Of a DNA stretch of 64,000 nt, positions 4,180 through 44,224 are shown piece after piece (the stretch's first letter is position 1; the number at the start of each line of letters is the position of its first letter). The DNA is from Escherichia coli (GTDB taxonomy: Bacteria; Pseudomonadota; Gammaproteobacteria; Enterobacterales; Enterobacteriaceae), in assembly GCF_024502345.1 (NCBI RefSeq), contig NZ_JALDNN010000001.1. One strand, 5' to 3'. A program made the position numbers and the translations under genes. The notes under the pieces are model-generated. The model saw only the letters and a list, made by a program, of their open reading frames with translations, searched no databases and was not told the origin of the DNA.

Positions 4180-4611
4180 TGTAGGTTATGTCCGTTACCC
4201 AACGCTCATCCGGAGCATCCGGATTGAACTGTCGCTGGAGCCTGTTGGGCGACACAATACTGGCCTCGCCTTTACGTGCCCGCGGGCTCCGGTATCCGAC
4301 CTGAGCCTTTATCCCGACACGTTTCATCAGTCGCCAGACTCTGTTGACTCCGCACTGTTGCCCGCTATCCCGCAGATCCAGATGGATCTTGCGATAACCA
4401 TAGACACATCCCGATTCCAGCCAGAACTGTTTAATCTGTCCTGTCAGTCTCAGGTCTACCTGATGGCGTTGTGAATGCGGCTGCTGAAGCCAGGAGTAAA
4501 AGCCACTGGGATGAACATCCAGCACCCTACAAAGCAGGCGAACAGGCCAGAAACAGGTGTTGTCGCGGATAAAGGCGTACCTCAGTCGGACAGTTTTGCG
4601 AAGTACGCCGC
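4180..4611 (-). pseudogene. IS3-family transposase OrfB, 5' exon (between the IS30 insertion and the intron)
   Basis: Reads LRYAFIRDNTCFWPVRLLCRVLDVHPSGFYSWLQQPHS...ERWVTDITY on the minus strand and ends at the intron 5' splice site. Confidence 0.8.
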
Positions 4612-5832
4612 TGTAGATTCAATTGGTCAACGCAACAGTTATGTGAAAACATGGGGTTGCGGAGGTTTTTTGAATGAGACGAACATTTACAGCAGAGGAA
4701 AAAGCCTCTGTTTTTGAACTATGGAAGAACGGAACAGGCTTCAGTGAAATAGCGAATATCCTGGGTTCAAAACCCGGAACGATCTTCACTATGTTAAGGG
4801 ATACTGGCGGCATAAAACCCCATGAGCGTAAGCGGGCTGTAGCTCACCTGACACTGTCTGAGCGCGAGGAGATACGAGCTGGTTTGTCAGCCAAAATGAG
4901 CATTCGTGCGATAGCTACTGCGCTGAATCGCAGTCCTTCGACGATCTCACGTGAAGTTCAGCGTAATCGGGGCAGACGCTATTACAAAGCTGTTGATGCT
5001 AATAACCGAGCCAACAGAATGGCGAAAAGGCCAAAACCGTGCTTACTGGATCAAAATTTACCATTGCGAAAGCTTGTTCTGGAAAAGCTGGAGATGAAAT
5101 GGTCTCCAGAGCAAATATCAGGATGGTTAAGGCGAACAAAACCACGTCAAAAAACGCTGCGAATATCACCTGAGACAATTTATAAAACGCTGTACTTTCG
5201 TAGCCGTGAAGCGCTACACCACCTGAATATACAGCATCTGCGACGGTCGCATAGCCTTCGCCATGGCAGGCGTCATACCCGCAAAGGCGAAAGAGGTACG
5301 ATTAACATAGTGAACGGAACACCAATTCACGAACGTTCCCGAAATATCGATAACAGACGCTCTCTGGGGCATTGGGAGGGCGATTTAGTCTCAGGTACAA
5401 AAAACTCTCATATAGCCACACTTGTAGACCGAAAATCACGTTATACGATCATCCTTAGACTCAGGGGCAAAGATTCTGTCTCAGTAAATCAGGCTCTTAC
5501 CGACAAATTCCTGAGTTTACCGTCAGAACTCAGAAAATCACTGACATGGGACAGAGGAATGGAACTGGCCAGACATCTAGAATTTACTGTCAGCACCGGC
5601 GTTAAAGTTTACTTCTGCGATCCTCAGAGTCCTTGGCAGCGGGGAACAAATGAGAACACAAATGGGCTAATTCGGCAGTACTTTCCTAAAAAGACATGTC
5701 TTGCCCAATATACTCAACATGAACTAGATCTGGTTGCTGCTCAGCTAAACAACAGACCGAGAAAGACACTGAAGTTCAAAACACCGAAAGAGATAATTGA
5801 AAGGGGTGTTGCATTGACAGATTGAATCTACA
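4612..5832 (+). mobile_element. IS30 (1221 bp) with a 2-bp GC target duplication
   Basis: Ends are TGTAGATTCAATTGGTCAACGCAAC... and ...GTTGCATTGACAGATTGAATCTACA, which are inverted repeats. 'gc' at 4610-4611 is repeated at 5833-5834. The length is exactly 1221 bp. Confidence 0.95.
4674..5825 (+). CDS. insI: IS30 transposase
   Basis: The 383-aa ORF MRRTFTAEEKASVFELWKNGTGFSEIANILG... matches my recollection of IS30 InsI along its length. Confidence 0.95.
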   Translation: MRRTFTAEEKASVFELWKNGTGFSEIANILGSKPGTIFTMLRDTGGIKPHERKRAVAHLTLSEREEIRAGLSAKMSIRAIATALNRSPSTISREVQRNRGRRYYKAVDANNRANRMAKRPKPCLLDQNLPLRKLVLEKLEMKWSPEQISGWLRRTKPRQKTLRISPETIYKTLYFRSREALHHLNIQHLRRSHSLRHGRRHTRKGERGTINIVNGTPIHERSRNIDNRRSLGHWEGDLVSGTKNSHIATLVDRKSRYTIILRLRGKDSVSVNQALTDKFLSLPSELRKSLTWDRGMELARHLEFTVSTGVKVYFCDPQSPWQRGTNENTNGLIRQYFPKKTCLAQYTQHELDLVAAQLNNRPRKTLKFKTPKEIIERGVALTD

Positions 5833-6089
5833 GCGGCTTTTTTTAATATGTCCCGTTCGTCGGTAACCCGCTTCAGCTCTTTCTGAAGGCGGCGGATCTC
5901 GGTCTGAGCATCTGACTGTTCTTTATTAGTGGAAGAATCCGGGCCGTACTTCTTTATCCAGGCGTAAAGGCTGTGGGTGGTGATATCGAGACGTGTTGCA
6001 ACGCTGGCAACAGAATAACCGCGATCAACAACCTGTTTGACTGCTTCAATTTTAAACTCTTCGGGATAACGCTTACCGCTCATGGGCAC
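5833..6089 (-). pseudogene. IS3-family OrfA (HTH), 3' end displaced by the IS30 insertion
   Basis: Reads MSGKRYPEEFKIEAVKQVVDRGYSVASVATRLDITTHSLYAWIKKYG...RVTDERDILKKAA up to the IS30 junction. The natural continuation AYFAKLSD* lies at 4609-4583. Confidence 0.85.
5837..5846 (-). promoter_or_regulatory. Programmed -1 ribosomal frameshift slippery site of the IS3-family element (TTAAAAAAAG)
   Basis: The plus strand 'cttttttt aa' corresponds to minus-strand A AAA AAG within ILKKAA at the orfA/orfB overlap. This is the classic IS3-family motif, and it lies 3 nt from the IS30 insertion point. Confidence 0.7.
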
Positions 6090-6317
6090 CTCTCTTTAAG
6101 CCATCTTAAATGACTCTGAGGTGTCTGTTAAACCCGTGGCGATTCAAGAAGGTTGAATATGATTCCCGACTCATTAATGGAACGCTGCATGATGTTATGC
6201 ATTACGGGTTGACATTACGATGTGACGGGCCGGGTTAGCTGTATGGAGCCTGTACACAAGTTTGTGTAATTGCCTGATTTTGATATGTTCAATTCAACAT
6301 CAAAAGCAGGTTACTTT

Positions 6318-6727
6318 ATGGACGAAAAACAGTTGTAGGCTCTGGCTAACGAACTGACCAAAAATCTCAAAACCCCTGACGATCTCAACCAGTTCGATCG
6401 CCTGCTGAAAAAAATCAACGTTGAGCGCCGCCTCAACGCCGAAATGCTCCATCACCTCGGCTACGGTAAACATCAGTCTAAACCGGGTGCCAACTCCCGC
6501 AACGGCTATTTCACAAAAACCGTTACCACCGGCGATGGCCCGCTGGAACTGCGTACGCCGTGCGATCGTGACGGCTCCTTCGAGCCCCAACTGGTGAAGA
6601 AAAACCAGACCCGGATCACCGGGATGGATAACCAAATCCTGTCACTGTACGCCAAAGGGATGACCACCCGTGAGATAGTGGCTGCGTTCAAAGAGTTGTA
6701 TGACGCGGATGTCTCACCGACGCTGGT
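6318..6727 (+). pseudogene. IS256-family transposase, N-terminal fragment
   Basis: Reads MDEKQL*ALANELTKNLKTPDDLNQFDRLLKK...HHLGYGKHQ...FEPQLVKKNQTRITGMDNQILSLYAKGMTTREIVAAFKELYDADVSPTL. There is an in-frame TAG at 6336-6338, and homology stops abruptly near 6727. Confidence 0.8.
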
Positions 6728-7030
6728 AGTCCTTCATGCTCCGGAAGGTCAGACTGATGTTGTCTTCACTGCCATCATCAGCAAGCGTGTTTTTAACGGT
6801 AAGATTGACTTTTGGGGAATATTCAGAAATGACAGAATCACAATTATTTTTATTCAAATCAACTTTTTTGCGCTCAGACAAGGGGCAGACTCCTGACCAT
6901 TACTGAAGTCGCCCGCCACGAGCAATTTCAGGGGGAGCTCCGTTTTCTTGCTCGCACCACCGGTATGCAAATCAAGTTTTAAATTAATACGCGCTTTAGG
7001 GATTTCGGACTGAAAGGAAGAATTAGACAT
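6725..7030 (-). pseudogene. tssB: Type VI secretion sheath small subunit TssB (VipA/ImpB) remnant, frameshifted and truncated
   Basis: From ATG 7030-7028 it reads MSNSSFQSEIPKARINLKLDLHTGGASKKTELPLKLLVAGDFS.. A +1 shift near 6880 continues PLSERKKVDLNKNNCDSVISEYSPKVNLTVKNTLADDGSEDNISLTFRSMKDYQ. It is cut at the IS256 fragment. Confidence 0.7.
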
Positions 7031-7766
7031 GGCTGTCCCTGTTCTATGGAGTGATAGAAACGGTCAATGCCAGTGAAAAATAAATAAGAAAAAATTACCC
7101 AGCCAGAACAACTTTCCGGTTCGCGTCATCCGACGTAAATAAAAATCCCGGAACCAAAAAAAGCGGGCGCATTCCATCCACCAGCATGTCGACACTGTAT
7201 TTTCTGGGTATTTGTCTGAAATGAAAAATTTCGGATAAGGCCCAATGGCTGGAGTTTGGGAACGTTCCCTGCCAGATCGAAAATGAAAAAATGTAACAAA
7301 GATTTACATTCCTGGCTTTTAACAAAAAAAATATCATCTTTCTGATTTATAAAAATTTTACACCATAACCCTTCAGGCCCCGCGGGATAAGGATGTACAG
7401 AAAATGATCAATTTGGCTTAGGGTGTATATTTGTACAAAATATCACCAGTCACGTGAAATATCTGATTTTGTACTTTTATCAGAAATTGAGAAGCTGGAC
7501 GTGACTGAGCATGTGAAAAACTGGCGACAGTTTCAGGTTTCCATCATTTCTTATTATTCACGTAAACCGGGCTTATTTATTTTTTTTCAGATTAAAGGAA
7601 TTGCAACGCCCGGACTTTACGCATATCTCATACCTGTACCAGCGATATGAATATCTCAGCCGCCGGTGCATTAGCGCGACCAGGAACAACACCCGTTCGG
7701 TTTACAGAAAGACAGACGTGGACAGTGATGAGCTTTGCTGCGGGTTGAGAACGGTTGTTTTACTGC

Positions 7767-11857: not shown

Positions 11858-13311
11858 GATATTATTACCCCGTTCAATAAGCCCGATAAATAATCGTTAT
11901 CGGGACTACTGCTAAAACGCCCTGTAACGCATCAGGAGCGCCATATTCATACTAACCACAGATTTCCACTATCGTGTTATTCAATGCGCTTATGCAGGCT
12001 CACAGGAAGCTATGGCGGTATAAGACACTACAGCGCTCAATTACTTATTAAATAGCTTGCGGTGATTACCAGGATAATCACCCTATTCCACGTCACCTCA
12101 ATCGGGTTATTCTGTTTACGATACAATCATGACTATTATCACCAACACGGATAATGCCCCGTTTACAGTCGTTACCAATGGCCTTGTTTACACATATCAA
12201 AAAACTTTCAGGGATAACGGGTCACCGTAGTATCTGTAACTGACAGGTATTGTAAGCGTCAATATCAGGCAGACAGAGCAATACCGACAGGCTTACTACA
12301 GGTTAGTTCACTGACTGAGCATTTAACGCTCATCACTAATACGCAGACCAGTAATAAACCATTGATACTCACCTGCTGATTTTCAGGCATGACCATTCAC
12401 CCAAAACGTTACTGTTAACCAGTAACCACCCTGTCGTTATGATTATTAGATTACTGATGTTAATCATCTTCACTTTTATCCTGACGAGGACTAGTCAATG
12501 GTAATATCGACTCAATTCAATTCTGTTTTCTTAATGATAGATTTTTAATGAGTGCTAAACATTCAGGTTGTGACTACATTGAATGGTGTATTTCTTACCT
12601 GATGGCAATGATTGCTCAATGGATACCATCCAATAGTACTATCCCCTTAGTGAATACCTTCAGATAATAATACCTCCCAGGCATAACCCACTTACTGATA
12701 ACACATCATCGATTACTGTTACAAATGATAAGACCCCTTCTTTAATATATTAATACCAATCCAACACGCCAGGCATAACAATAGCTATGAAGATAACCAC
12801 GCCAGACAGCACTTACCTACAACAAACGCCTGCATCAGTTACTCTGGAATTATCTTTTTTCAATAACATGAAAATAGACACCACGTCATATCAAATAACC
12901 TCAATCAAATTAACCCCGTATCATCACTGCCCGCAGAAGCCCTCAATCCTGATTATGAGCAACAAAATGGAAATACCTCATGGCAGCCCGACCTGATACC
13001 AGAAATGCCCCCTGAAGCGAACCAGGCACCATGATGGGGATGAAAACGAAAGCATGCAGGAGAACAAGATAACCTATTGAGACGATACTCATCCAGTAAA
13101 CAGAGAAGCATCTGAGAGATAAACAAAGAAAATGACAACTTTAAAACCATGGTAAAACCTTGTCAAAACCAGTATAAATCAACAATAAAACCTCACGATG
13201 ACTACCAGATGTGTTTTTAAGTGACGATAAAACCATCATCGTGATACTGTGTAGCTACAACAATCACCACCATAACCACTACTATGTAGTTTACGATTAC
13301 AGGTATCCACA

Positions 13312-14280
13312 ATGGTTGTACATTACGACAATGGCAGACAACATCTTATAAAAACCCGTGACCTGAGAGTCTGTGCTTTTTATGCCGGGTGGCTGGGTGT
13401 TAATAAAATAATTAACACCCGTGACATTCCTCACCAGGATGCAGAAAGTTGTCGACAGGCACTCAACAAACTGATTAATCAGTTCATACCGAATGCAGAA
13501 CAGCGGGCAAGACTTTTTTCTGATATGGAAACAGCCCGTGATGAAAACATCCTTCCGCTGGAAAGTTTTGACTGGCTAGAACAGGATGAACGGGCAACAT
13601 TCTGGTTATGGGCGTATATTTGCAAGGCCGGAGACTACGAACTTGGTATTGACAAACCAGCAAATGCAGAGTTCGGAAAGAACTGGTATCAGCGAATGAA
13701 TCTGAGTGTATCTCCGACAAGCCACCAGGAAAGAATTAATATTATCATCTCTTTTTTCGACAACATTATTATTCCGACCCCACCGGTAAATCATCTCAAG
13801 CGCCAGGTCATGGACAGGCTGAAAGACCAGTGGAAAAATATTTACAGCAAACCAGCTCCGCTGAAATGGTTACCTAATGAAGAAGACGCGGTACTGTGGG
13901 CATGGAACAGCCTCAAATCGCTTCAGGAAGAAAGAAATGCGCCCACTATCGGGCTCTCATTAAATATTTCAACGCCAGGAATGAGTACCTGGTTTACCCC
14001 CCTGAGTCATTCTGAACGCAATTTAGCCCTGCGCACGGCGATCGACTTATGGGACGATGCACCGGATACAAAGCGTTTATTCCTTCTGAACCTGAATAAA
14101 GCCTGGAACCAGCAAAAATTACGTCAGTCCCGTACCGATAAAAAAGCACTCAATACGTACCTGAAGAACGAAACAAAAACTCGACTGGACTTTATGGCAG
14201 AACGTAGCGGAGTTCGCATCAGTGATATGCTGGAAATGCTGATTAATGACCATTACCGAAAAACCTGTGGTGGTGAGTGA
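13312..14280 (+). CDS. YfjH-like island protein with a C-terminal ribbon-helix-helix-like tail (322 aa)
   Basis: Paralogous in layout to 40694-41503 (ATFWLWAYI / AAFWFWLVI; LxWAW; SxxER). The C-terminus KALNTYLKNETKTRLDFMAERSGVRISDMLEMLI looks like an Arc/CopG RHH. Confidence 0.6.
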   Translation: MVVHYDNGRQHLIKTRDLRVCAFYAGWLGVNKIINTRDIPHQDAESCRQALNKLINQFIPNAEQRARLFSDMETARDENILPLESFDWLEQDERATFWLWAYICKAGDYELGIDKPANAEFGKNWYQRMNLSVSPTSHQERINIIISFFDNIIIPTPPVNHLKRQVMDRLKDQWKNIYSKPAPLKWLPNEEDAVLWAWNSLKSLQEERNAPTIGLSLNISTPGMSTWFTPLSHSERNLALRTAIDLWDDAPDTKRLFLLNLNKAWNQQKLRQSRTDKKALNTYLKNETKTRLDFMAERSGVRISDMLEMLINDHYRKTCGGE

Positions 14281-14629
14281 GGGCTTTGCGCTAAAAACAA
14301 GGTGAGCGGAGGCAGTAATACAGACCAGAAATGACATTCAAAATAATTTCAGACCTATATTACCGGTGTGAGAACGGCAGCAGAAGTGCTGCCGTTTTGT
14401 TATTTCACTCACGGAGGTTAATGTGTCCAGTAAGAACAAACGGGGTCCCGATACCCTGTTACCGTCGTTATTCCTTCTCCCGGGTCAACTGTCCCACAAA
14501 ATACCCGTGCGTATGCTTCTCGCGCTAAGTCACAGCTATGCTTTCTGTTCCGGTACCCAGGTCTCTCTGATACACGGTCCGCCAGCTCATGAAGGCGGCT
14601 ATTTATTGCCAGTAATAAGGGAGAAAGAA

Positions 14630-14926
14630 ATGCATTGTCCGAATTGCGGTTCGCAAAACATACGACTGCGCCATGTGGGTAAAAAGACGGGTGGGGTCAT
14701 TGGCGCAACAGCCGGAGGCATTGCCGGGCTTGAAGGAGCCTCCACCGGTGCGCTGATAGGTTCAGTCATTCCGGTTGTCGGTACGATAGCCGGAGGCCTC
14801 ATTGGTTTTCTGTCCGGCGCCTGTGCTGGTGCGGTGGCAGGCTCTCTGGCCGGAGAACAACTGGACGGTACCGTCTTTGATGAATACGGCTGCACGCAGT
14901 GCGAGCATATCTTCAGTGCACCGTAA
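14630..14926 (+). CDS. Small zinc-ribbon plus glycine-zipper protein (98 aa)
   Basis: ATG at 14630 follows GGGAGAAAG. Reads MHCPNCGS...; the GxxxG-rich segment is GGVIGATAGGIAGLEGASTGALIGSVIPVVGTIAGGLIGFLSGACAGAVAGSLAG, and the C-terminal motif is GCTQCEH. Confidence 0.6.
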   Translation: MHCPNCGSQNIRLRHVGKKTGGVIGATAGGIAGLEGASTGALIGSVIPVVGTIAGGLIGFLSGACAGAVAGSLAGEQLDGTVFDEYGCTQCEHIFSAP

Positions 14927-15187
14927 CGTTAATAAGGGTCAGCCCATCCTGCACAAAGCCTGAGCCGCTGACCGTACTCGCTACGGCACGACTGATGACA
15001 GGGCGTGTCAGCATGCTGTCGTCATTTCAGCTACCTGGCACTAACCCTTTGTTAATTCTCCTGTTTACTGAAAGATGAATTTTACTTTTTCTTTTCCGCC
15101 ATTACGGGGGATGGACATAACGTGTCCCTCCCCGCCCGCATAATAACCGCATGAAATATCAACCTATTTATCGCACACGGAGCGTCC

Positions 15188-15916
15188 ATGCAACGACCCG
15201 ATGAAGAGGCCCGCTACGACCGGCTGGCCGTCAGATTGTCGGTCATTATCAGCCGGTTAATGGCCGGAGAAACGCTGACCCTTCAGACACTGTCCGGTGA
15301 GTTTGGTGTATCGATACGCACCCTGCGTCGTGACTTACATCAACGGCTGGTCCACCTCGACATTATCGGGGAGAACGGCACGTATCGGCTCAGTGAGAGC
15401 GCCACGCGTGATCACTCTCCGGGGGCCGTTTCCTTTGCCCGCAGTACCGGTATCGCACGCATTATCCCGTCGCAGAACCGGCAACTGATGCACCTGCTGA
15501 TGAATGAAACGGGCACCTCACCCTGCTTTATCTGGCACGACTTACCGCCAGCATGGACACAGGCTGACAGTTTTCATCGTCTGGCCGAAGCCATTTGTCA
15601 TCACCGGGTGGTCAGTCTGCTGGTCGGCGGTGTCCGTCACGATGAGCAGGAGCCTTACCGCCTGATTTACCGGCATCAGCACTGGTATCTGGTCGTCTGT
15701 TGCCGGGGGAGCCTTCGGGTGTTCCGGCTGGAAGACATTATCTCGGCCTCACTCTCAGAGCAAACCTTCCGTCGCCGGAGCGAAATCAGTTCGCTCATTA
15801 CTGAAGAGGGATTTATCAGCGCACTGCCCCACTTTCGCTTTATCAGTGATGTCATTCACACCTTCAGGGAACAACACCCTGAACATCCATCCAGACCCAA
15901 AGGAGTCAAATCGTGA
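15188..15916 (+). CDS. WYL-domain transcriptional regulator (HTH plus WYL)
   Basis: Has the N-terminal HTH LTLQTLSGEFGVSIRTLRRDL and the central EPYRLIYRHQHWYLVVC motif. Its stop overlaps the next gene's start. Confidence 0.75.
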   Translation: MQRPDEEARYDRLAVRLSVIISRLMAGETLTLQTLSGEFGVSIRTLRRDLHQRLVHLDIIGENGTYRLSESATRDHSPGAVSFARSTGIARIIPSQNRQLMHLLMNETGTSPCFIWHDLPPAWTQADSFHRLAEAICHHRVVSLLVGGVRHDEQEPYRLIYRHQHWYLVVCCRGSLRVFRLEDIISASLSEQTFRRRSEISSLITEEGFISALPHFRFISDVIHTFREQHPEHPSRPKGVKS

Positions 15917-16179
15917 AACCTGTCGAAGGCCCTCTGCTGCTCTTCACCCTGATGTTGTCTGCCGTAACCCTGAGCGGCTGTGGCGACAAAAATGAACGCG
16001 AGTTTATCCGGGGATGCAAATCAGGCGGCGGTACTACCGCCGTCTGCGGATGTATCCGGGATGACCTCAAAACGAAATATACGCACGGGGAGCTGGAGAA
16101 AATGAACCAGCAATACGGTTATGTCCCCCCGCGCTTCATGGACAACATGCTGAGCGCTGCTCAGCAGTGCAGAAAATAA
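15913..16179 (+). CDS. Small lipoprotein
   Basis: Signal peptide with lipobox LLLFTLMLSAVTLSGC. The GTG start overlaps the regulator's stop (GTGA). Confidence 0.65.
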   Translation: MKPVEGPLLLFTLMLSAVTLSGCGDKNEREFIRGCKSGGGTTAVCGCIRDDLKTKYTHGELEKMNQQYGYVPPRFMDNMLSAAQQCRK

Positions 16180-16191
16180 GGAAATCTGAAC

Positions 16192-16503
16192 ATGGCGCTT
16201 GTCATTAAATATTTCGCGATTGCCTTCGCCATCGCGCTTGTGGTCGTGCTGTTTAACGTGTTCGGGAGTACCGGCGAGATACGCAGTTTTGGTCAGGGAA
16301 TGGAATATCTGTTCTGGATGACGCTTGGGCCCGGAGCCGGTATGACGGTCGGTGCTGCTCTTCGACAATGGCTGATGCCGGATGCGGTATACACCCGCGA
16401 AGGAATGACCGGATTACTCAAGGCCCGTCTGTTCTGGCTTGTGGGCCCACAGTATATCGGCTGGCTGGCCGGACTTATCGTCGTGGGTAAACAACTCATG
16501 TAA
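16192..16503 (+). CDS. Small inner-membrane protein (3 predicted TM segments)
   Basis: Hydrophobic segments include IKYFAIAFAIALVVVLFNVF and LFWLVGPQYIGWLAGLIVVG. It lies 12 nt after the previous gene. Confidence 0.55.
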   Translation: MALVIKYFAIAFAIALVVVLFNVFGSTGEIRSFGQGMEYLFWMTLGPGAGMTVGAALRQWLMPDAVYTREGMTGLLKARLFWLVGPQYIGWLAGLIVVGKQLM

Positions 16504-16549
16504 CACGGCTGCCCCCCAACAACATTTTTGACTGAGAAGGAAAAATACC

Positions 16550-17020
16550 ATGCGATTCATGCACGCCATCCTGTCAGCAGGATTACTGACCTTTGCCATC
16601 ACGGCACAGGCGGTCCCCAATATGTGGAGCAGTGGCTTCGGTATGGGCGTCACCGAGTACATCATCACCAGCCCGGAAAACGTGATGATGAACCTGAACT
16701 GCACCGGCAACCCTGACGACCAGAATATCCTGCAGCATCACGTCATGCTCACCCTGCCTGACGGCAGCGGTGCCGATTCACAGGATGAGAAAACCGCCAT
16801 CACCGTCGTCACGGATGACCAGACGTTCCCCCTGCCGTCCTCTCTGGGCTGGCGTAACGGCGACAACGCCTGGCTGTCGTTCATTGATGCCATCAGAAAA
16901 GCAACGTCGTTTGAGATTTACGTCAACGACAAACAGGTGGGGCACTTTACCCCTTCGGCTGGAAACGTTCACAAGGTTCTGGCTGATATGCCCGAATGCA
17001 CGACACTGACCGCCGGGTAA
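16550..17020 (+). CDS. Secreted/periplasmic protein (YfjT-like position)
   Basis: Has the cleavable signal peptide MRFMHAILSAGLLTFAITAQA|VP and an RBS AAGGAAAAA upstream. Confidence 0.6.
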   Translation: MRFMHAILSAGLLTFAITAQAVPNMWSSGFGMGVTEYIITSPENVMMNLNCTGNPDDQNILQHHVMLTLPDGSGADSQDEKTAITVVTDDQTFPLPSSLGWRNGDNAWLSFIDAIRKATSFEIYVNDKQVGHFTPSAGNVHKVLADMPECTTLTAG

Positions 17021-17068
17021 CCCGGCGCATCCCCGGTTTACAGCAAAATCAATCAAGGACAATACGAT

Positions 17069-17581
17069 ATGACCGACATTTCGACACTCAGCCAGCGACT
17101 GACGACGCCAACCCTGCATTTTGTTCTACTCACCGTCGCCACCTGCGGCATCTGGCCGTTACTGTGGCTGTACCGAAAACAGCAGATTATCAGCGACACC
17201 ACCGGATATCCGGTTTGCGGCAATCTGTTTATCATCTGGCTCGCCGTCTGTTTTGGGCTCGGACGACAGTTCGGCGTGATGGCCTCACCGGACCTGGCGG
17301 GCTACTACACGGGCAGCGATACACTGTTGGCCTTAAGCGGCATTCTGTCGCTCACCTGCGGCGTGATGTACATCGTCTGGGCCTTTAAGGCCAGAGCAGC
17401 ACTGCGACACTATGCGCTGAACACCTTCCGGTTTGACCTGAAGATGAATGCGTTTTATACCGTGGTGCTCAACGTCTTCTACATTACATACTGCATCAAC
17501 GATATGCCGCAGGCACTGGCGAAGCACCGCATTATTCATGGTCAGGCCCCTGTGCCGCCGGAGTCTCCGTCACCGCAGTAA
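17069..17581 (+). CDS. DUF4234-like membrane protein
   Basis: Carries the LHFVLLTVATCGIWPLLWLYRK motif and further TM segments. Confidence 0.55.
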   Translation: MTDISTLSQRLTTPTLHFVLLTVATCGIWPLLWLYRKQQIISDTTGYPVCGNLFIIWLAVCFGLGRQFGVMASPDLAGYYTGSDTLLALSGILSLTCGVMYIVWAFKARAALRHYALNTFRFDLKMNAFYTVVLNVFYITYCINDMPQALAKHRIIHGQAPVPPESPSPQ

Positions 17582-17663
17582 CGCAGCTCTCCTCTTATTA
17601 TCCGGCCGGGGCATTCCTGTGTGCCCCAGATTCATCCGGATCCCCCCTCTGAGATTTGACCCA

Positions 17664-17885
17664 ATGACATTACTGAAAATCGTGCTCAACACCCTGCGTC
17701 AGGTGCTGACGTGGTGCGCCAGCAGCCGGGCGCAGCAGTTTGTGGAAGACCACTTCCGCGAAGAAGGCTATGACGAAGACAGTATTTACATCGCCAGACA
17801 GGCGGCAACCCTGCTCGCAGGTGCCTTAATCACAGCGCTCATGGAACAGATACTGCAGCTTATTGCCACACACTTAACCCACTGA
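17664..17885 (+). CDS. Small hypothetical protein (73 aa)
   Basis: Internal ATG of ORF 17448-17885 ([15 protein letters not shown]...). The upstream part of that ORF overlaps the preceding gene. Confidence 0.35.
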
Positions 17886-17940
17886 TGCCCTGCTCACTGA
17901 GCGGGGCATTTTGTTTTATGCCATTCATCAGGAACTGAAT

Positions 17941-18174
17941 ATGCAAGTCACTGACGATACGTCGTTACCGCCAGGGCAATTCACCCGCCGACAGGCTGAA
18001 GCCGTGGTCACGCTTTACCACAACGTCACTATAGAAGATGACCAGGGTACGCACTTTCGGCTGGTTATTCGCGACAGCGAGGGGACGTTAATCTGGCGGG
18101 CCTGGAATTTTGAAGCCAGTGCCGGGGAATGGCTTAACCGCTATCTGCTCAGCCACGGGATCCCCAAACACTGA
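17941..18174 (+). CDS. DUF905/UPF0401 (YkfF-like) small protein
   Basis: Carries [44 protein letters not shown] and is paralogous to 44225-44458. Confidence 0.7.
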
Positions 18175-18212
18175 CACACCACAGCTTAACCCAATAGCGA
18201 CCACACAAAAAA

Positions 18213-18246
18213 GCCATGCTCCCACAGGAGCATGGCTGTTTTGTTT
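18213..18246 (+). terminator. Rho-independent terminator
   Basis: GCCATGCTCC-caca-GGAGCATGGC followed by TGTTTTGTTT. Confidence 0.7.
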
Positions 18247-18277
18247 ATGCCGTTAAATCAACAATAAGGAATTTACC

Positions 18278-18535
18278 ATGAGACTAGCCAGCCGCTTTGG
18301 ACGGACAAACCAGATCCGTCGCGATCGTCCGTTAACCCGCGAAGAACTGATGCAGGTCGTTCCCAGCGTATTCAGTGCAGATCGCCACGGTTCCAGGAGC
18401 GAAAAATACGCTTACATACCCACCATTACTCTGCTCGAAAATCTTCAACGCGAAGGCTTTGAACCCTTCTTCGCCTGCCAGTCACGCGTACGCGACCCTG
18501 ACCGCCGGGAGCACACCAAACATCTGCTGCGCCAT
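18278..18535 (+). pseudogene. DUF932 (YafZ/YfjQ-family) gene, N-terminal ~85 codons only; truncated at the cassette junction
   Basis: MRLASRFGRTNQIRRDRPLTREELMQVVPSVF...EGFEPFFACQSRVRDPDRREHTKHLLR parallels the intact paralog 44557-45375 up to about codon 85, then diverges. Confidence 0.8.
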
Positions 18536-18675
18536 CTTTGTAGACCGGAGAATGATGTTTGGATGAAAGCGAGTTTTGGTACCCTCATCATTGAGGGTAC
18601 CAACAGCAAAATACTCGGCGAATGCTATTGTCTAAGCACAGCGCCAAGCCTTAGCGGCACGAATAGTTGTTAACC

Positions 18676-21414
18676 TTACTCAGCTTTAGCAAACTGCTGG
18701 GTGAAGTAAGCCAATGAATTAGCTTCTTTTACGGCATCATGCGGAATGAGTAAGTATTTCCAAGGTTTGCCACCGTGCTGTGCAAGGTATTCACTGGCAT
18801 GACTACACCATTTCACACCACTGCGGGCTTTTTCGGTGACTTCCTCATTCCAACTGCCGTCTTGGTTTTGATGTTGAGTACTTTTAGTTTCAATCATCAA
18901 TACATAGTCGGCGGTTTCAGCAACGAAATCCGGCACGTATTCAGGATGCTCGCTACCGCGTTTGTAGTACATCTTGAATTGGCCTTTGGCAGGCTTAAAC
19001 CACTTCTCGCAGTCGCGTTCTAAAATCACCGCAAAACGGCGCTCAGTGTCTGAATCAAACTTTTGCAATGGGTATAGACAACGGCTAAAGCCGCCAAAGA
19101 GCATTTGTTTGATGCGACTGACATCGCGTACTGTATCACGGTAGCTTTGCACCGGCTGGTCTTGCGCTATGGTGTAAGCGCAGTCACGTAAGGTACTAAA
19201 GCCACTGCGTACATCGACGACGTACTCGGTTGCTTCTTCAAAGAAGTGGTTGTTCAGTTGCGCATGAATTAACTTCGCAATCGCATCACTCTGGTTTTGC
19301 AGAATGTTCTCAACCACATCGTCGTCGTTTTCAGCGGCCAGTGTATTGACAGCTTGAGTGGCTAGGTCAAACAAAAGTTCAGCTTGCTCGTCGTAAGGAA
19401 TATCGTCGTAATCGAACAGCTTCTTCAAAATATAGTTTTGTTTCACCGGCTCGTAGTTGCCCGAATCGCCTTCGCCACGAATGGTTTGGTGATTGTCTTG
19501 CAGGCTTTGTTGAATCAGAGTTCGGTCGATAGGTTTTAAACCTTTAATGGCAGCAATGTCCAAATCGAACGGGTGATAGCCGGTACGTACTTCACCTGAT
19601 GGTGAAACAATAATACGCGGAATATCTATGGTGTTATCCACCGTGAGCTGGGTGACTTGCTCAACAATCGCCGCAATATCCACCGATTCTTCAGTAAATA
19701 GCTCCCGTTGCTCTTGGGTTAACTGAGCTTTTACTTGTTCGGTGATCTGTGCTTTTACCTCAGTCGTTAACAATGCTTTGCTGGTCGGCGCATCGGTAGG
19801 GCGTGTTTGATATTGCTTGATCACGTCCAATGCAGCGCGGGCAACGGTTTGTTGGTTAGGCGTGGTATAAGTGGCTTTAGGTTCTTGTACCTCACGGTTA
19901 CCGTCTGCACCGGTTGCGGTTACACCTGAACCAGTCAGTTGCTGCTCTAGGTTCGATTTAACCTGCACACTTTGTTTGGTTACATCGTCTTCTGGGCGAT
20001 CTAATACGCGTGTTTTCAGGCGCAGTGGGTTATTCGGGTCGTTAGCCTCATCAACAATTTCTTGGAATTTGTCGTGCGCAACAATGCTCAGCGTATCGAC
20101 GGCTTCAACACCTGTACGTTTGCCATAAGGTAAACGCAAACCACGGCCAATTGACTGTTCAATTAGGGTTCTGGCGTTGGCTGCACGTAGTGGCACAATG
20201 GTGTACAGGTTAGTAACGTCCCAACCTTCTTTCAGCATGTTAACGTGAATGACGATCTCGGTTGGCTCATCGACATGCTCAACATTGAGCAGTGCTTGAA
20301 TAGTTTCTTCTTCTTTTTTACTGCTATCCACTTGAATGACTTTGCCACGGTAGCGGCCGTCAAACACTGTTTCAAGTTTGGTTAAAAGCTCTGCTGCATG
20401 CGTGGTATCACGGGCAATCACCAACATAAAAGGCTTAACTAACTTAGCATCGTTTTCATGTGCATAAGTGATTAAATCCACCTTGGTTTGCTCATGTAAA
20501 CGAATACCGTCCATTAACTTAATGGTTTCTAGTTCGTCTTTATCATATTGGCTGGCATCAAAGTTACGCTGAGTAACAACGGCAGGCTCTTTAACAAAAC
20601 CATCATCCATGGCACAGGCCAATGGGTAATCAATCACCACATTTTTAAAGTGCACAGGGCCACGACTTGATTCGGTAAATGGTGTGGCCGTTAGCTCTAA
20701 TGCGAATAGTGGATTAAGCTCATTGAGCGCACGCATACCGGCATCGGCACGATAGCGATGCGATTCGTCCATCAGCAGCACTAAGTCAGGTAAGTTCGAT
20801 AGATACTCAAAGTAGCTTTCGCCTAGGGTTTCCGCTAAACGCTTAATACGCGGGGCTTTGCCTCCACGTACTTCGGTGTTAATTTTCGCGATGTTAAACA
20901 CATTGATCCGAACCGAACCAAATAGATCGCCCATGACTTGTGCGCCGCGGCTCTCATAGTTATCACCGGTGATCACTTCTGGCGGTGCTAGCACAAAATC
21001 GGTAATGCCTTTAAACACGTACTTCGGTGAGGCGGGCGAGAAATCGCTGATCAGCTTTTCATAAATAGTCAGGTTAGGTGCCAACACAAAATAATTGCGA
21101 ATGCCATGTACCTGATACAAATAGGTAATAAACGCCCCCATCAAACGGGTTTTACCTACACCTGTTGCCAAGGCAAAACACAGTGAAGGAAAGTCACGTT
21201 CAAAATCGCTGAGCTTAGGAAACTGCGCTTTTAAGGTTTCTAATAGCTCCGGCACATCGCGTTTTGGGTTCAGTAGTTTGTGCTCAGAAGCACTAATCGC
21301 CACTGCCAACGCACGCAGCGAATCTTGCTGCGGCTGGCGTAAGCTTAAACGGCCAATAATATTATTAATGGCACGTAATTGGTCGGGTTTTAAGCTTGAT
21401 AAATCCATGGTCAT
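18676..21414 (-). CDS. res: Type III restriction enzyme Res subunit (SF2 helicase plus C-terminal PD-(D/E)xK nuclease)
   Basis: 912 aa with ATGVGKT (motif I), LLMDESHRY (DExH), helicase-C VNMLKEGWDVTNL..QSIGRGLR, and C-terminal PDFVAE...LMIETK. It lies 21 nt downstream of mod. Confidence 0.85.
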   Translation of the reverse strand: MTMDLSSLKPDQLRAINNIIGRLSLRQPQQDSLRALAVAISASEHKLLNPKRDVPELLETLKAQFPKLSDFERDFPSLCFALATGVGKTRLMGAFITYLYQVHGIRNYFVLAPNLTIYEKLISDFSPASPKYVFKGITDFVLAPPEVITGDNYESRGAQVMGDLFGSVRINVFNIAKINTEVRGGKAPRIKRLAETLGESYFEYLSNLPDLVLLMDESHRYRADAGMRALNELNPLFALELTATPFTESSRGPVHFKNVVIDYPLACAMDDGFVKEPAVVTQRNFDASQYDKDELETIKLMDGIRLHEQTKVDLITYAHENDAKLVKPFMLVIARDTTHAAELLTKLETVFDGRYRGKVIQVDSSKKEEETIQALLNVEHVDEPTEIVIHVNMLKEGWDVTNLYTIVPLRAANARTLIEQSIGRGLRLPYGKRTGVEAVDTLSIVAHDKFQEIVDEANDPNNPLRLKTRVLDRPEDDVTKQSVQVKSNLEQQLTGSGVTATGADGNREVQEPKATYTTPNQQTVARAALDVIKQYQTRPTDAPTSKALLTTEVKAQITEQVKAQLTQEQRELFTEESVDIAAIVEQVTQLTVDNTIDIPRIIVSPSGEVRTGYHPFDLDIAAIKGLKPIDRTLIQQSLQDNHQTIRGEGDSGNYEPVKQNYILKKLFDYDDIPYDEQAELLFDLATQAVNTLAAENDDDVVENILQNQSDAIAKLIHAQLNNHFFEEATEYVVDVRSGFSTLRDCAYTIAQDQPVQSYRDTVRDVSRIKQMLFGGFSRCLYPLQKFDSDTERRFAVILERDCEKWFKPAKGQFKMYYKRGSEHPEYVPDFVAETADYVLMIETKSTQHQNQDGSWNEEVTEKARSGVKWCSHASEYLAQHGGKPWKYLLIPHDAVKEANSLAYFTQQFAKAE

Positions 21415-21435
21415 TATAATTATCCTTATTAACCG

Positions 21436-23142
21436 TTAATCTTGCGCTGCATCGTCATCGGCAGACGCATCGTCAGTTAGGTTTGCCACGTTTAACGAAT
21501 AATCGTCCTGACCAAATTGGCACTTGTCTAAAATGGCTTTTGGCAGTTTTTTCAAGGTTAAATTGGTAAAACGACCTGGCTCGCAGCGAAATGCACCACA
21601 CATAACCAGTAAAGTTCGGTCACTGCCAACTTCTTCTGACAGCGCTTCTAATTTATCTACCGATAAGCTTTGTGTGGTGACATAAATATGATCCGTCTCG
21701 GTTGAATAACCGTGATCCCACCAATTCACTTCCGATGGCGCATAGGTAAAACCTTCCAGCTTACAAACGGCTTCGGCGAGCATTTCTGGGTTGTACTCTT
21801 TATTGATCACTTCCAAGCCAAACTTATCTTTCACAATTAAGGTCGGGGCAAGTTTGTAATAGCGGAAGCCACCGCCACCTTGCCAGTTTACAGACTTAGA
21901 AATACCACCTTGATCTTCGCCATCAATCACTTTTTGCAAGCGCGGGATAATATGGGTATGACAATGATCACCTAGCTCGACCGAGATCCAACGTCTTTTC
22001 ATCTTGTGAGCTACAGCAGCAGTAGTTCCCGAACCACCGAATGAATCAAAGACTAAATCGCCTTCTCGCGTACACATTTCGAAAATCCGCTTCAAAAGCG
22101 CTTCGGGTTTTTTTCCATTTTTGAAACTAACGCCGCCTTCATTTGCTATTCCATTCCAACTAATGTCAGTCCAAACATCAGTTATTAGTTCAGCAGGTTG
22201 CATCTCACCGTCAATTTCCAAAAGCCTATTGGAGTAAAAGACCATTTGCCTACCATTTGCGATATAAAAGCCTTCGACATCCTCATTTGGATGTACATAA
22301 ACCTTATCCCTATCTTTCTTTGACTTCTCGATAGTTTCTTTTCTCTTTATTTTAGCACCACCACCAATTGCAACGGATTGAAATACACGTTCTGCATTAT
22401 CAATTGCGAATTGTGCTAATTCATCATCAAATGTATCAGGCAGTTTTTTCTTGGCTTCTTTTGTATCTTTATAGCCATTGGCCTTTGCAAACGCATCGGC
22501 AATACCGCACCACGTCCAACTTTTATAATGGTCATCTGGGTTTAATAGATATTTGTTATATCCCGTATCATATCCTTTAGGTATATAGATTTTGTTAAGC
22601 GGTTTCTGGGTGCGATCTTTTGCGTATACAAGCAAAAAGTTTACTGTGGAGAAAACTGTGGCCCCTGTTGCCTTAAAGCCTGAAGGGTCATTTGTGGTCA
22701 TCGATATGGTATTTAACTGATTTGCACGACCAAAAATCTCGTCCATCAAAACTTTTAAATAAGCCATTTCGCAGTCATCTAAGTGAACGAATATTACTCC
22801 ATCATCACTTAGTAGATTACGAATTATTTCTAACCTATCCCTCATTAAGCCCAGCCAAATGGAATGCTCCAGACCATCATCATAGTGCTCAAAAGCACTT
22901 CCGGTATTGAATGGTGGGTCTATGTAAACACACTTCACTTTGCCTGCATATTCTTGCTCTAGCGCCTTCAATGCCAATAAGTTATCGCCAAAAATCAGTT
23001 TATTATCAAAAATATCGTTTTCGGTCACTTTTTGGCTGGCGTGATAAGACTTGCTCGGGTCTTCTAACAAAATGCGCGGCTCTAACTTTTTGCGCTCGTT
23101 TTTGCCTATCCAGGTCAGTTCTAATTTGGTTTTGCTCATCAT
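21436..23142 (-). CDS. mod: Type III R-M Mod subunit (beta-class N6-adenine/N4-cytosine DNA methyltransferase)
   Basis: 568 aa with VYIDPPFNTG (motif IV) preceding FDSFGGSGTTAAVA (motif I). The N-terminal LTWIGKNERKKLEPRILLED is typical of Type III Mod. Confidence 0.85.
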   Translation of the reverse strand: MMSKTKLELTWIGKNERKKLEPRILLEDPSKSYHASQKVTENDIFDNKLIFGDNLLALKALEQEYAGKVKCVYIDPPFNTGSAFEHYDDGLEHSIWLGLMRDRLEIIRNLLSDDGVIFVHLDDCEMAYLKVLMDEIFGRANQLNTISMTTNDPSGFKATGATVFSTVNFLLVYAKDRTQKPLNKIYIPKGYDTGYNKYLLNPDDHYKSWTWCGIADAFAKANGYKDTKEAKKKLPDTFDDELAQFAIDNAERVFQSVAIGGGAKIKRKETIEKSKKDRDKVYVHPNEDVEGFYIANGRQMVFYSNRLLEIDGEMQPAELITDVWTDISWNGIANEGGVSFKNGKKPEALLKRIFEMCTREGDLVFDSFGGSGTTAAVAHKMKRRWISVELGDHCHTHIIPRLQKVIDGEDQGGISKSVNWQGGGGFRYYKLAPTLIVKDKFGLEVINKEYNPEMLAEAVCKLEGFTYAPSEVNWWDHGYSTETDHIYVTTQSLSVDKLEALSEEVGSDRTLLVMCGAFRCEPGRFTNLTLKKLPKAILDKCQFGQDDYSLNVANLTDDASADDDAAQD

Positions 23143-23196
23143 TTCTGTGCTCTTATCTTGTGTTCGTTACTTAGCGTTATTATTCTACAGCAATCG

Positions 23197-25062
23197 CTAC
23201 GCAGGTTGTGCTTGGCGATTACTCGCTTGGGTGTTTTGCCCTTGTCGGCGTTGCGCTTGCTCGGCTAAGTAACTGAATAAATTCTGGTTGTGTGGGTCGT
23301 TCGCTTGAAGGCGTTCTTGTTTTGCTACAACTGCCGGGCTTTCTGCCAAGTTTAAATGGCTAATCCACACCGTTTGCATTAAACGTGCGGTATCGCCCAA
23401 GCGTTTGAAGTATGCGTGCGGCGCACTGCCTAATACTAATGCCGTAAAACTATCAAAAAATTGCTGACGAAGTTCATCAAAAGCGTGGCTGATTAATCTT
23501 TTAAATGCCGCTTGCTCGGTAATCTCAGGAGCCGTAATAGCGCCTTCAAACTGCGCCATTAATAGCGTGGTTATGCAGTAAGTAAAATGTCGATATACCA
23601 GTTTTTCTGGGCTTGGACTACTGCGCTCTGCGTTTGTACATAAGACTTGAATAGCCAGATAGCAGTTCACCGCGTTAATGGCGACGGCCCCCTGTAAATC
23701 TGTACTAAAAACGGCTTGGTACTCGGCACTTTCTTGGTTAGTGAATTTGCTTGGCTCTACTTTTAGCTGATAAGGCACGCGTACATCACCGTGCATACAG
23801 GCCAATGCTTTGGCCAAGGTGTCGATAGTAATGCTGCGAATACCCGCTGCTGCGCTTTGTTGTGGGCGGTAGAGATATTCAACACCAAACATTTTCATCT
23901 CTTGGCGCAAGCGTTCTTGGGTATCATCCAGCGCGGCAAAGTTGGCTAAATCGACCGGGTTTTGCAGGTTACGCGCTTTGGTTACTTGTTTGTGAAATGC
24001 ATCGTTACCCGTGTTGATAATGGTTACCATCACTTGAGCTTGGCTGATGTCTGCATTTGGGTTTTCACGCATAAACTGTGCAGCACTAGCAATGGTTTGT
24101 GCACCGTTAACGACGGACAGGCCATCGACTGCAACATGCTTGCTACCTGTGTGGCCTCTAATATTCCCTTTTGGTTTTACTGCATTGCCAACCAGAGTAA
24201 TGCCATTGTTAAGATAAATAAAATTTTCCGGCTCATGTAAAAGGGTGTCTTTAATCGCCCTATTTACCCCACGTCTGCCAGCACCAATAAAATAGCGAAT
24301 ATTTTTCTCGTAAAGTTTACGGTCATGAGTAGTGTGCAAGGCAATTAAATCGGTTAGCTTGGCGATACCAAATACGACTTTTCGTGGTTGTTCTTGCACT
24401 CGGAACTTATATACAGCGACACGCTCGTTTACCGTATCAACCGCATGTTCACTGCGAAGAGCCTGCTCAACATCGGTGGCGGTGTATTCTTGATATTCAG
24501 GTGCGATTTGCTCTTCACCTTCATCAATCAGCTCTTGGATCGCTGGTTGTAGGTAGTTTTGTGCTTGTATGGTAATGCCATTACCTGTGTATGCGACAAG
24601 CAGTTGAATTCTTTCGCACTCGTCTAATGCGGCTTCAATATTTGCTTGAAGGTTTTGAACATTTTGATTAAAGCGGTGAAATTGCTTGTTTAAAAGTAAC
24701 TTTACACCCTCAATAAAAGCCTGTGCTTCGCCCAATTGGAATTGCGCATCTTCCTTCATTTTTGACTGTACTAAGTACAGAGTCTGATCAGCTTCGTGAT
24801 AATAAATTGCATCAATACCATGGTCTTCATAGTCGTCCACCACAGCTTTTGCTGCGGTCACTACGTCTAAATCGAATTTTTGCTGTAGTACGAATGCGCT
24901 AAAAGCCCTGGAAATTTGCTTTTTAGGTTTATCTTCTCGCCCACCTTGCCCAAGCAATGGCGGTAAATGCGGCACAAAACGCTGCTGTAGCAGTTCTTTT
25001 AATAGGGTAAGAAATTGTGGTTGTAATGCTGCCAAGTGAGTTGTCCTTATTTTTATTGCCAA
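23197..25062 (-). CDS. AIPR-family (abortive infection phage resistance) protein
   Basis: 621 aa with [31 protein letters not shown]...[11 protein letters not shown], the AIPR signature as I recall it. The first codon is TTG (25062-25060), which overlaps the Abi_2 stop by 10 nt. Confidence 0.7.
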
Positions 25063-25982
25063 ATTGGCCGCGCTTGCCAGTCGGCTGGAAAGCCCATGCG
25101 GTCAATGTCTATTTGGTGATGATTTATCAATTGGATGAGTCGTTGCTTCCAGTGATGTTCACCACTGATCACATCCATGAGGTAGCCCAACATCACCAAG
25201 GTGTTATAAATTTTTCGTAAACGCCGGTCGCTATCGGGCAGGTTTTGCAAGCTTTGAATCAGTGCCGGTTCACCATGGCGTGGCAGTACCGTGGTTTTAA
25301 TAAAATCACGGTTCCATAGCCTAGAATGATGGGCACTTAAATTGCGCACTAGCGACAAATGCTCACAGAATGAGGTAAGAGTTTTTTCATCTAGGCCGTA
25401 GCTTTTGCTTATTACCTGGCGGTCGGCACGCAGCTTGATATTGCTGTACCAACAGGAAAGTTGCCCCATGGTTAACAGCTCAACACAGGCCCAAATAGGG
25501 GGTAGTGGCTCTTGATATTTTTGCGTAAGGTGCTTGATGAACTCTTCACGACTGCACTTTACCTCACCCGTGAGTTTGCCAAGGCTACTGGCGTATTCTA
25601 ATAAATCACCAAAGAGCTCTGGTTTTAAATGAGGGTGCGCGGTTTGGTATTTTTGGCTCAACTGATACGCAATTTGTGTGCGTAATGACACCTCAAAACG
25701 CTCGATGGCATCTAGCACTAACAAACGTAGTTCACGGTCGAAAACATATAGGCTTAGGACTTGGTCAAACTGAGTACCTGTGATAAACGTATGACTGGCA
25801 TGATCTTGCTCATAGGGCAAACAATAAGCCGCAAAACGATAGTAGTTCAGCTGTGCTAAGTAAAACTCAGCTTTCGGGACATCACTGATCACTAGGCCAC
25901 GTTGTTGCAACAAGCGTACTTGATCGCTAAAGCTTGTAGGGGGCTTGGTAAAAGCGACTTTAGGGACTGGTTTGCGGCTCAT
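25053..25982 (-). CDS. Abi_2-family (AbiD/AbiF-like) HEPN protein
   Basis: Carries [12 protein letters not shown]...YYRFAAY...VFDRELR...[16 protein letters not shown] (HEPN R-x4-H). The start is taken at MSRKP (25982); the longest ORF starts at 25994. Confidence 0.75.
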
Positions 25983-26139
25983 TTGACCTCCCATGCAACA
26001 GAAGATCGAATTTTGCGGGCCCCAGAAACGAGTAACCCCTCACAGGGCGCTGATCTGACGGGTAGCGGGAGGGGTGTTGTTGCAGTGATCATAGCCCCAA
26101 ACTGAAAAAAGTCAATGCTGGCGTTGAAATTGATTGTCA

Positions 26140-42447: not shown

Positions 42448-42538
42448 TTTGCCACTCCAGATTTTTTCACGCCCATATTACCTGAATGATAAACCGGATT
42501 AGTGTGATCCGGTTCAGTGAAATCAACAGGATACCGGT

Positions 42539-44219: not shown

Positions 44220-44224
44220 CCGGT

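Follow-up and report, generated by a model that had tools for sequence, protein, structure and literature searches.

The 64,000-nt stretch of Escherichia coli DNA analyzed here (the window) carries, on its plus strand between 14.3 and 18.2 kb, seven open reading frames (ORFs), g1 to g7, which include a WYL-domain regulator and a series of genes for exported proteins. The account that we favor, with moderate confidence, is that this locus is a ligand-switched operon for envelope remodeling that resides on a mobile island and represents a diverged, mosaic form of the yfjR-yfjT module of CP4-57-type islands. In the proposed mechanism, g2, a minimal homodimer-type regulator with a winged helix-turn-helix (wHTH) and a WYL domain, would bind two GGACA-N5-TGTCC palindromes that precede its own gene at a distance of 117 bp from each other. 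As the fold suggests, a ligand bound by the WYL domain would alter the engagement of DNA or RNA polymerase; single-stranded DNA (ssDNA) arising from DNA damage, phage attack, or transfer of the element is the most likely candidate. The ligand would turn on a single g2-g7 transcript that ends at 17884-17910. The output would be five co-transcribed envelope proteins, whose types can be seen in their sequences: a lipoprotein, a protein with two or three transmembrane (TM) segments, a YfjT-like disulfide-bonded protein, a DUF4234 protein, and a small C-terminally anchored protein. Their role may be a non-lethal remodeling of the host envelope or surface, for instance in keeping out incoming DNA or phage or in aggregation and biofilm formation, rather than that of a suicide toxin.

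The CP4-57 region of E. coli K-12 served as the reference, and proteins were compared by BLASTP. The g2 protein shares 43% identity with K-12 YfjR over the full length (222 aa, E-value 2e-52), and g5 shares 46% identity with K-12 YfjT, also over the full length (151 aa, E-value 4e-52). By this comparison, the locus is a homolog of the CP4-57 yfjR-yfjT block, diverged rather than a mere look-alike. A resemblance to this block had been noticed in an earlier note made from the sequence alone, and it is borne out by the homology of both protein pairs. The contrast drawn there, that the window block differs in having a WYL-type regulator, is false, since K-12 YfjR itself matches the Pfam WYL domain above the cut-off (E-value 1.9e-5). 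No homologs of YpjK or YfjS were found in the window block by BLASTP, where the best match was no better than E-value 0.3; YfjS matches PF20494 (E-value 1.4e-68), and g3 and g4 have no Pfam match. We found nothing functional in the literature on ypjK, yfjS, or yfjT. The four genes yfjR-ypjK-yfjS-yfjT are uncharacterized "y" genes, and the locus is a gene-content variant of a known module, not a new kind of system.

The regulatory sites emerged from an alignment of 260-nt upstream regions, taken from regulator genes whose products share only 40-60% identity. The alignment revealed the 15-bp palindrome, present in two copies per upstream region. In the window, the distal operator-like palindrome TGACAGGGCGTGTCA occupies positions 14996-15010 and matches GACA-N5-TGTC exactly, and the proximal one, GGACATAACGTGTCC, occupies 15113-15127 and is the sole perfect 15-mer in the window. 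The GACA-N5-TGTC core has two exact occurrences in 64 kb (1.1 expected), both within the 261-bp spacer between g1 and g2. The two positions recur in about 60 loci: counted from the start codon, the distal site is at -185 to -196 and the proximal site at -72 to -74, and the density of palindromes upstream of the regulators is 3.8 sites/kb, compared with 0.31/kb in the background. A -10-like hexamer (TAAAGT, TAAAAT, CATAAT, TACAGT, or TAGAAT) follows the proximal palindrome at a spacing of exactly 11 nt in 33 of the 35 promoter variants in which this palindrome is detectable; in the window it is CATAAT at 15139-15144, plus strand, a 5/6 match to TATAAT. Because of this spacing, the -35 position falls within the proximal palindrome. 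At a spacing of 16-18 nt, -35 matches reach 3/6 at most, and TGn is also absent. With the palindrome at -35 and neither of these elements present, consensus scans miss the promoter, both in the literature (PMC9308461) and here, where a sigma-70 consensus scan of the spacer returned zero promoters. Our promoter call rests on comparative conservation, not on the sigma-70 consensus. The placement of the operator pair agrees with genomic systematic evolution of ligands by exponential enrichment (SELEX), in which the single target of YfjR was its own operon (PMC8249747). Chromatin immunoprecipitation with exonuclease digestion (ChIP-exo) under standard growth, without inducer, gave no binding of YfjR (PMC8464067), which would fit ligand-dependent DNA binding.

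All seven ORFs are present at the coordinates proposed in the earlier note. Because the ratio of nonsynonymous to synonymous polymorphism (pN/pS), calculated against orthologs from other genera, is 0.07-0.46 throughout, each of g1-g7 is judged to be a real gene under purifying selection, and none a chance ORF. The regulated unit is predicted to be g2-g7 (15188-17885), since both operators lie in the g1-g2 spacer and the lone terminator follows g7. This intrinsic terminator (17884-17910, plus strand; 12-bp stem with seven GC pairs, followed by a T-run) is located directly 3' of g7, and no other terminator-like site was found on the plus strand at 14398-17884. The distances between successive genes from g2 to g7 are an overlap, 12, 46, 48, and 82 nt; such tight spacing together with one terminator implies co-expression. 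No RNA family was detected in an Rfam scan of 12000-19000, and the search of all products against Pfam, NCBIfam, PHROGs, and PADLOC yielded only WYL/HTH, DUF4234, and low-complexity Gly-rich matches.

The first gene of the predicted unit, g2 (15188-15916, plus strand, as are all seven genes), encodes a 242-aa protein of the YfjR family. It matches the Pfam WYL domain (E-value 9.5e-7, above the curated cut-off), HTH models, and the PADLOC WYL model (E-value 4e-20). The structural model has a mean predicted local distance difference test (pLDDT) score of 72, with 84-91 in the WYL domain, and consists of a wHTH, a linker of three low-confidence helices, a WYL barrel, and a tail that is short and helical. 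The last WYL strand ends near residue 193; about 45 residues follow it, and only about 30 of these form helix. The motif Q-H-W-Y-L-V-V occupies residues 164-170, with W166 and L168 invariant in the family and no flanking Arg. A family-profile search of PDB sequences retrieved PafBC as the sole match (E-value 2.4e-9), with no sequence-level match to CapW or BrxR. At the level of the model, the fold of g2 is similar to those of DriD, PafBC, BrxR, and CapW, which sense single-stranded nucleic acid via the WYL domain (PMC9186387, PMC11662680, PMC11804915).

The downstream genes encode proteins of several envelope-directed types, in agreement with the earlier description of a WYL-regulator operon with such products. 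The g3 gene (15913-16179) has a GTG start, which overlaps the end of g2 as described before, and encodes an 88-aa lipoprotein with lipobox LSG/C23 and four more Cys residues (pN/pS 0.10-0.15). The product of g4 (16192-16503; pN/pS 0.07-0.18) is a 103-aa membrane protein that has zero matches in the family databases; hydropathy gives two or three TM segments. The YfjT-family protein g5 (16550-17020, 156 aa) is considered below. The g6 gene (17069-17581) encodes a 170-aa membrane protein with three or four TM segments by hydropathy, whose residues 16-113 correspond to DUF4234 (PF14018; E-value 3e-8, 34.1 bits at a cut-off of 25.3; pN/pS 0.11-0.28). The last gene, g7 (17664-17885), encodes a 73-aa protein with a hydrophobic helix at the C-terminus (pN/pS 0.15-0.42); in Moellerella, Providencia, and Rosenbergiella, the gene that comes right after the YfjT-like one encodes a conserved counterpart (48% identity).

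The family profile of YfjT-like proteins (alignment A1) retrieved 74 loci from contigs representing one genome per species; the window and K-12 proteins were mapped onto these loci, and every ORF in the slot was clustered. The 75 loci follow a general plan, in which a YfjR-like regulator is followed by variable cargo, a YfjT-like gene, and, optionally, a DUF4234 gene and a g7-like gene. All 13 cargo families in the slot (13/13) are exported, as judged from signal peptides, lipoboxes, or TM segments; the probability of this by chance is about 7e-6 if about 40% of proteins are exported, a background rate that we assumed. Among the families are YfjS/YafY and other lipoproteins, YpjK, a number of secreted proteins (150-215 aa) that are rich in Cys and unrelated to each other, and a protein with a GYF domain and a TM segment. 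A Pfam search of eight other cargo families gave only the GYF_2 domain, on one of them. Some combinations are fixed: g3 and g4 always occur together, g6 always follows the YfjT-like gene in its lineage, and ypjK-yfjS-yfjT form a constant triplet in about 35 loci. The YfjT-like protein is the sole constant cargo, present in each enterobacterial module.

The window locus is, by these comparisons, a mosaic version of the module, and its gene order is unique in the locus set. In the loci of Yokenella, Superficieibacter, and Hafnia (L003-L005, about 3450-7640), g1 and g3-g7 are 82-97% identical to the window, and the regulator is only 52% identical. The proximal site of this regulator allele is the variant GACATAACGTGGC, and the regulator and its operator seem to have been swapped together as a single piece. 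At another locus, L010, g3 and g4 are about 90% identical to the window proteins and g5 63%. Compared with L003:4779-5400 and L010:4794-5390, the window has a deletion of about 560 bp (at 15913-15985) that removed a gene for a 167-aa secreted protein, which follows the regulator in the closest relatives of the window locus. As a result, the start codon (MK) now comes from the lost gene and the hydrophobic core from the lipoprotein signal of g3, which makes the signal peptide a chimera, and this fusion explains the overlap of the g2 stop with the g3 start.

The constant component of the module, g5, has a signal peptide with the cleavage site AQA/VP and two invariant Cys residues, C51 and C150, which probably form a disulfide in the periplasm. 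Alignment A1 also contains a cluster of invariant polar residues, including the motif LGWRNGDNAW. PF27224 is precomputed on all 120 of the 120 homologs listed, and PHROGs places g5 in a family of unknown function. The core of the AlphaFold2 model is confident, and its best match among viral structures is a "putative adhesin" of a Serratia phage (E-value 3e-7, template-modeling score 0.62, 19% identity). Among 1.8 billion representative proteins, the family forms 177 clusters at 50% identity, and its multi-domain members contain no informative partner domain. A phage origin of YfjT-like genes was considered and rejected, as none occur in 50,697 phage records and the IMG/VR matches, mostly at the ends of predicted proviruses, look like island boundaries. 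Stand-alone YfjT-like genes are found in unrelated contexts in Aeromonas, Oceanisphaera, and Zobellella. In Zobellella taiwanensis (L068:3965-6450), outside Enterobacterales and outside any CP4-57-type island, a lone YfjT-like gene is located about 1 kb downstream of genes for a 362-aa WYL-family protein and a 251-aa ORF.

The description of the locus in the earlier note is sound except for its 5' boundary. The operon was proposed to begin with g1 (14630-14926), which is not confirmed: the g1-g2 spacer holds the conserved YfjR-type operator pair and the -10-like element. Because g1 lies 5' of both operators and in the slot occupied by a GTPase gene in other islands, it is best described, on positional grounds, as an upstream neighbor outside the regulated unit. 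The g1 gene has a good ribosome-binding site and encodes a 98-aa protein with CxxC pairs at each end that form a candidate Zn-ribbon (C3, C6/C88, C91) and, between them, a Gly-rich hydrophobic core of the glycine-zipper type with 18 overlapping [GAS]xxx[GAS]xxx[GAS] motifs. Its pN/pS is 0.15-0.19, its family is very small (19 clusters), and its PHROGs matches are only low-complexity Gly-rich ones. A longer 167-aa form with an upstream start, given in one public annotation, was rejected in favor of the 98-aa start because the longer ORF is interrupted in two orthologous loci, L004 and L005. In other islands, the conserved 5' region found before g1 is followed by a YfjP-type GTPase gene. Related islands have that gene in full at this place; in the window only a remnant of its start is kept (GTG at 14423, "MSSKNKRGPDTL"), and g1 appears to have replaced it. 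The DNA at 14330-14470 is conserved across genera and contains a hairpin with a 12-bp stem (14371-14398). Farther to the left of the slot is g0 (13312-14280), a gene for a conserved 322-aa protein whose C-terminus has a weak RepB/RepA-like ribbon-helix-helix match (Pfam E-value 9e-4, below the cut-off) and which has a 20%-identical paralog at 40616-41503 in a second island.

The block is rare in E. coli, being found with 100% identity in 3 of the 5426 complete genomes. Klebsiella, Citrobacter, Raoultella, and E. coli have identical copies on large conjugative plasmids of the IncFIB/IncHI1B type; annotations there call the products hypothetical, "WYL domain-containing", or "glycine zipper family". 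The window island itself sits on a segment 100% identical to IncFIB/IncHI1B plasmids of Klebsiella. According to the annotated identical copies and the window ORFs, the backbone of the island includes YfjJ, GTPase, DUF905, DUF932, antirestriction, RadC, and CbtA genes. The locus thus sits on a mobile island, and defense genes lie immediately downstream. The identity to the reference island ends at 18533, inside the DUF932 gene (truncated ORF 18278-18673). The defense block occupies 18534-29115 on the minus strand and encodes a type III restriction ResIII helicase (18676-21414), an N6/N4 methyltransferase (21436-23142), AIPR (23197-25062), Abi_2 (25053-25994), and an SNF2 helicase (26140-29115); it is 96% identical on many Salmonella plasmids. 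In K-12, CP4-57 holds abpAB and rnlAB.

A second CP4-57-type backbone, without a YfjR module, is present in the window at 40616-49600 and includes the g0-like protein, a YfjP-like GTPase (42539-43423), DUF905, DUF932 (44557-45375), antirestriction, RadC, and CbtA toxin (47874-48251) genes. Its slot is occupied by a single gene for a 225-aa signal-peptide protein (43542-44219) with no Pfam match and no regulator. The equivalent slot of CP4-44 holds the autotransporter Ag43.

An alternative to the switched remodeling operon is that the slot after the YfjR promoter serves as a landing pad for cassettes, collecting unrelated, independently acting exported "moron" genes that have no joint mechanism. 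Such genes could function in adhesion, stress, or immunity to envelope-targeting toxins, and YfjT and the regulator would be the oldest residents. In line with this scenario, the cargo comprises 13 or more unrelated families, combined in many ways; the operon contains recombination breakpoints, evident from the identity values of L010 and L003 given above; and a clean deletion took out one cassette, leaving the rest undisturbed. The lone 225-aa protein in the second-island slot and the stand-alone YfjT-like genes in the chromosomes of Aeromonas and Oceanisphaera fit it as well. We nevertheless consider it rather improbable, given the fixed sets of cargo genes, the presence of a YfjT-like protein in every enterobacterial module, and the implied co-expression.

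A further alternative, developed from the earlier note, is an abortive-infection or anti-phage module, in which the WYL regulator would silence membrane-disrupting effectors until phage infection or DNA damage occurs; the glycine-zipper, small TM, and DUF4234 proteins would then depolarize or permeabilize the membrane and halt the spread of phage. Several observations are compatible with this scenario. The fold of g2 is shared with the WYL regulators that control bacteriophage exclusion (BREX) systems and anti-phage signaling systems based on cyclic oligonucleotides (CBASS) (PMC9122601, PMC9122588), the islands carry defense cargo (type III restriction-modification, AIPR, Abi_2, and SNF2 helicase genes in the window, abpAB/rnlAB in CP4-57), and hypervariable mosaic cargo is expected in conflict systems. 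In addition, a premature stop in yfjR, which would fit harmful cargo activated by damage, was found in ofloxacin-evolved E. coli in a study that also constructed a yfjR knockout (PMC12363166); the gene appears there as one entry in a list of many mutated genes. A defense role nevertheless finds no direct support. None of g1 and g3-g7 matches PADLOC-DB 2.0, including its candidate systems, and no YfjT-like gene occurs in the phage collection. The strongest "toxin-like" gene, g1, is outside the predicted regulated unit, and the constant component of the module is a soluble periplasmic protein, not a pore-former. A lethal effector is also hard to reconcile with cargo genes that persist without a regulator in a few loci (L022, L033, L035, and L037). 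The yfjR mutant is viable, with 65% less biofilm, in the passage of PMC9308461 that cites Herzberg 2006. We therefore regard this scenario as unlikely. Non-lethal surface cargo is preferred to a suicide effector because of the regulator-less loci, the lone secreted protein in the second-island slot, and the presence of Ag43 in the CP4-44 slot.

An exclusion or defense role of the remodeling operon is kept open by the hypervariability of the cargo, the mobile and defense-rich setting, and the ssDNA-sensor fold of g2. A bolder version, which we hold to be doubtful, is that the YfjR family is a distinct, minimal class of WCX-less WYL activators that respond to ssDNA and drive a hypervariable exported array centered on a periplasmic YfjT scaffold; the array would be a hitherto unrecognized conflict system acting at the level of the envelope. 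It would be triggered by ssDNA that arises from damage or phage attack or when the island or plasmid enters by conjugation; its outputs would be entry exclusion, anti-phage activity, or surface masking; and CP4-57-type islands and large plasmids would have carried it across Enterobacterales. That the locus is a silent relic of a cryptic element, in decay and without current function, is very improbable: the island is cryptic-prophage-like, the adjacent DUF932 gene is truncated, one cassette is deleted, and the block is rare in E. coli, but all seven genes are under purifying selection, identical copies reside on many conjugative plasmids of several genera, and the positions of the regulatory sites are conserved to the nucleotide.

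The following points weigh against the switched remodeling operon itself: (i) the experimental hints, the biofilm phenotype among them, all concern yfjR and stem from the K-12 variant, in which the cargo (YpjK and YfjS) is different from g3, g4, g6, and g7; (ii) since L022, L033, L035, and L037 keep cargo without a regulator, the switch is dispensable; (iii) the ChIP-exo failure for YfjR could be technical; (iv) the promoter departs from the sigma-70 consensus; (v) repression by occlusion of the -35 position fits the promoter geometry equally well; and (vi) the binding of g2 to the palindromes, the ligand, and the co-transcription of g2-g7 are all predicted.

What is new here is the operator pair, the DriD-like promoter geometry, the rule that all products are exported and YfjT is constant, and the mosaic history. 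The operator pair, the geometry, and the exported-cargo rule give the y-ome genes yfjR-ypjK-yfjS-yfjT a concrete, testable frame, and if the envelope-level conflict system is real, four E. coli y-genes gain a function. The module is carried by clinically common IncFIB/IncHI1B plasmids of Klebsiella, so that any effect on phage sensitivity, conjugation, biofilm, or the envelope would matter for plasmid ecology. If the cargo consists of ordinary surface accessory proteins, the find is routine.

Among known systems, the closest is the K-12 CP4-57 block (b2634-b2637). The two share a homologous regulator and a homologous last secreted protein of the K-12 block, products that are all exported, the same type of island, and the same slot in it, close to the genes for GTPase, DUF932, and DUF905. 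They also share the operator pair, at -191 and -74 in the window and at -186 and about -75 in K-12, and the spacing of 11 nt between the proximal operator and -10. The middle genes, in contrast, are unrelated: K-12 has YpjK, a Gly-zipper membrane protein, and YfjS, a YfjS/YafY lipoprotein (PF20494), and their places in the window are taken by the 88-aa lipoprotein g3 and the 103-aa membrane protein g4, with analogous roles. The window has two additional genes, for the DUF4234 and 73-aa proteins, after the YfjT-like gene, and its module precedes DUF905-DUF932, whereas the K-12 module follows DUF932. For g5, a fold likeness to invasion-associated locus B (IalB) can be noted, as a phage protein annotated as IalB was weakly matched in the viral fold search and both are small exported proteins with unknown biochemistry; the fold score is below the confident level, and g5 has no sequence similarity to the Pfam IalB family.

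For the regulator, two groups of WYL proteins can be compared. CapW and BrxR, the wHTH-WYL-WCX repressors of CBASS and BREX, resemble g2 in having a palindromic site at the promoter of their own operon and in residing in mobile or defense-rich DNA. Their WYL domains are characterized by the RWHVR motif (PMC11662680), which g2 lacks, having HWYLV instead. They are also longer (about 285-300 aa compared with 242 aa), with a WCX domain of about 100 aa in place of the roughly 45 residues that follow the WYL domain in g2, and the genes downstream of g2 match no known defense system in PADLOC. The second group consists of the ssDNA-activated activators DriD of Caulobacter and PafBC of mycobacteria, with which g2 shares the canonical W-Y-L motif and the WYL fold. 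In promoters without a -35 consensus, the sites of DriD lie over the -35 position and keep a fixed spacing to -10 (PMC13004042), and the putative g2 site, placed where the -35 element is lacking and likewise at a fixed spacing to -10, is similar in geometry alone. A further likeness is that DriD turns on DidA, a small protein of the inner membrane. Unlike these activators, g2 is about 90 residues shorter and has no full WCX domain, the operon that it would control is its own, carried by a mobile island, rather than a chromosomal damage regulon, and a second putative site lies 117 bp upstream. The "ligand-derepressed" mode suggested in the earlier note, though possible, is therefore not established: g2 lacks both RWHVR and a long WCX domain, and its promoter geometry is that of the activator DriD. 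Because of the HWYLV motif, this geometry, and the absence of ChIP-exo binding of YfjR without inducer, activation by g2 may be slightly favored over derepression, the two being close to evenly balanced.

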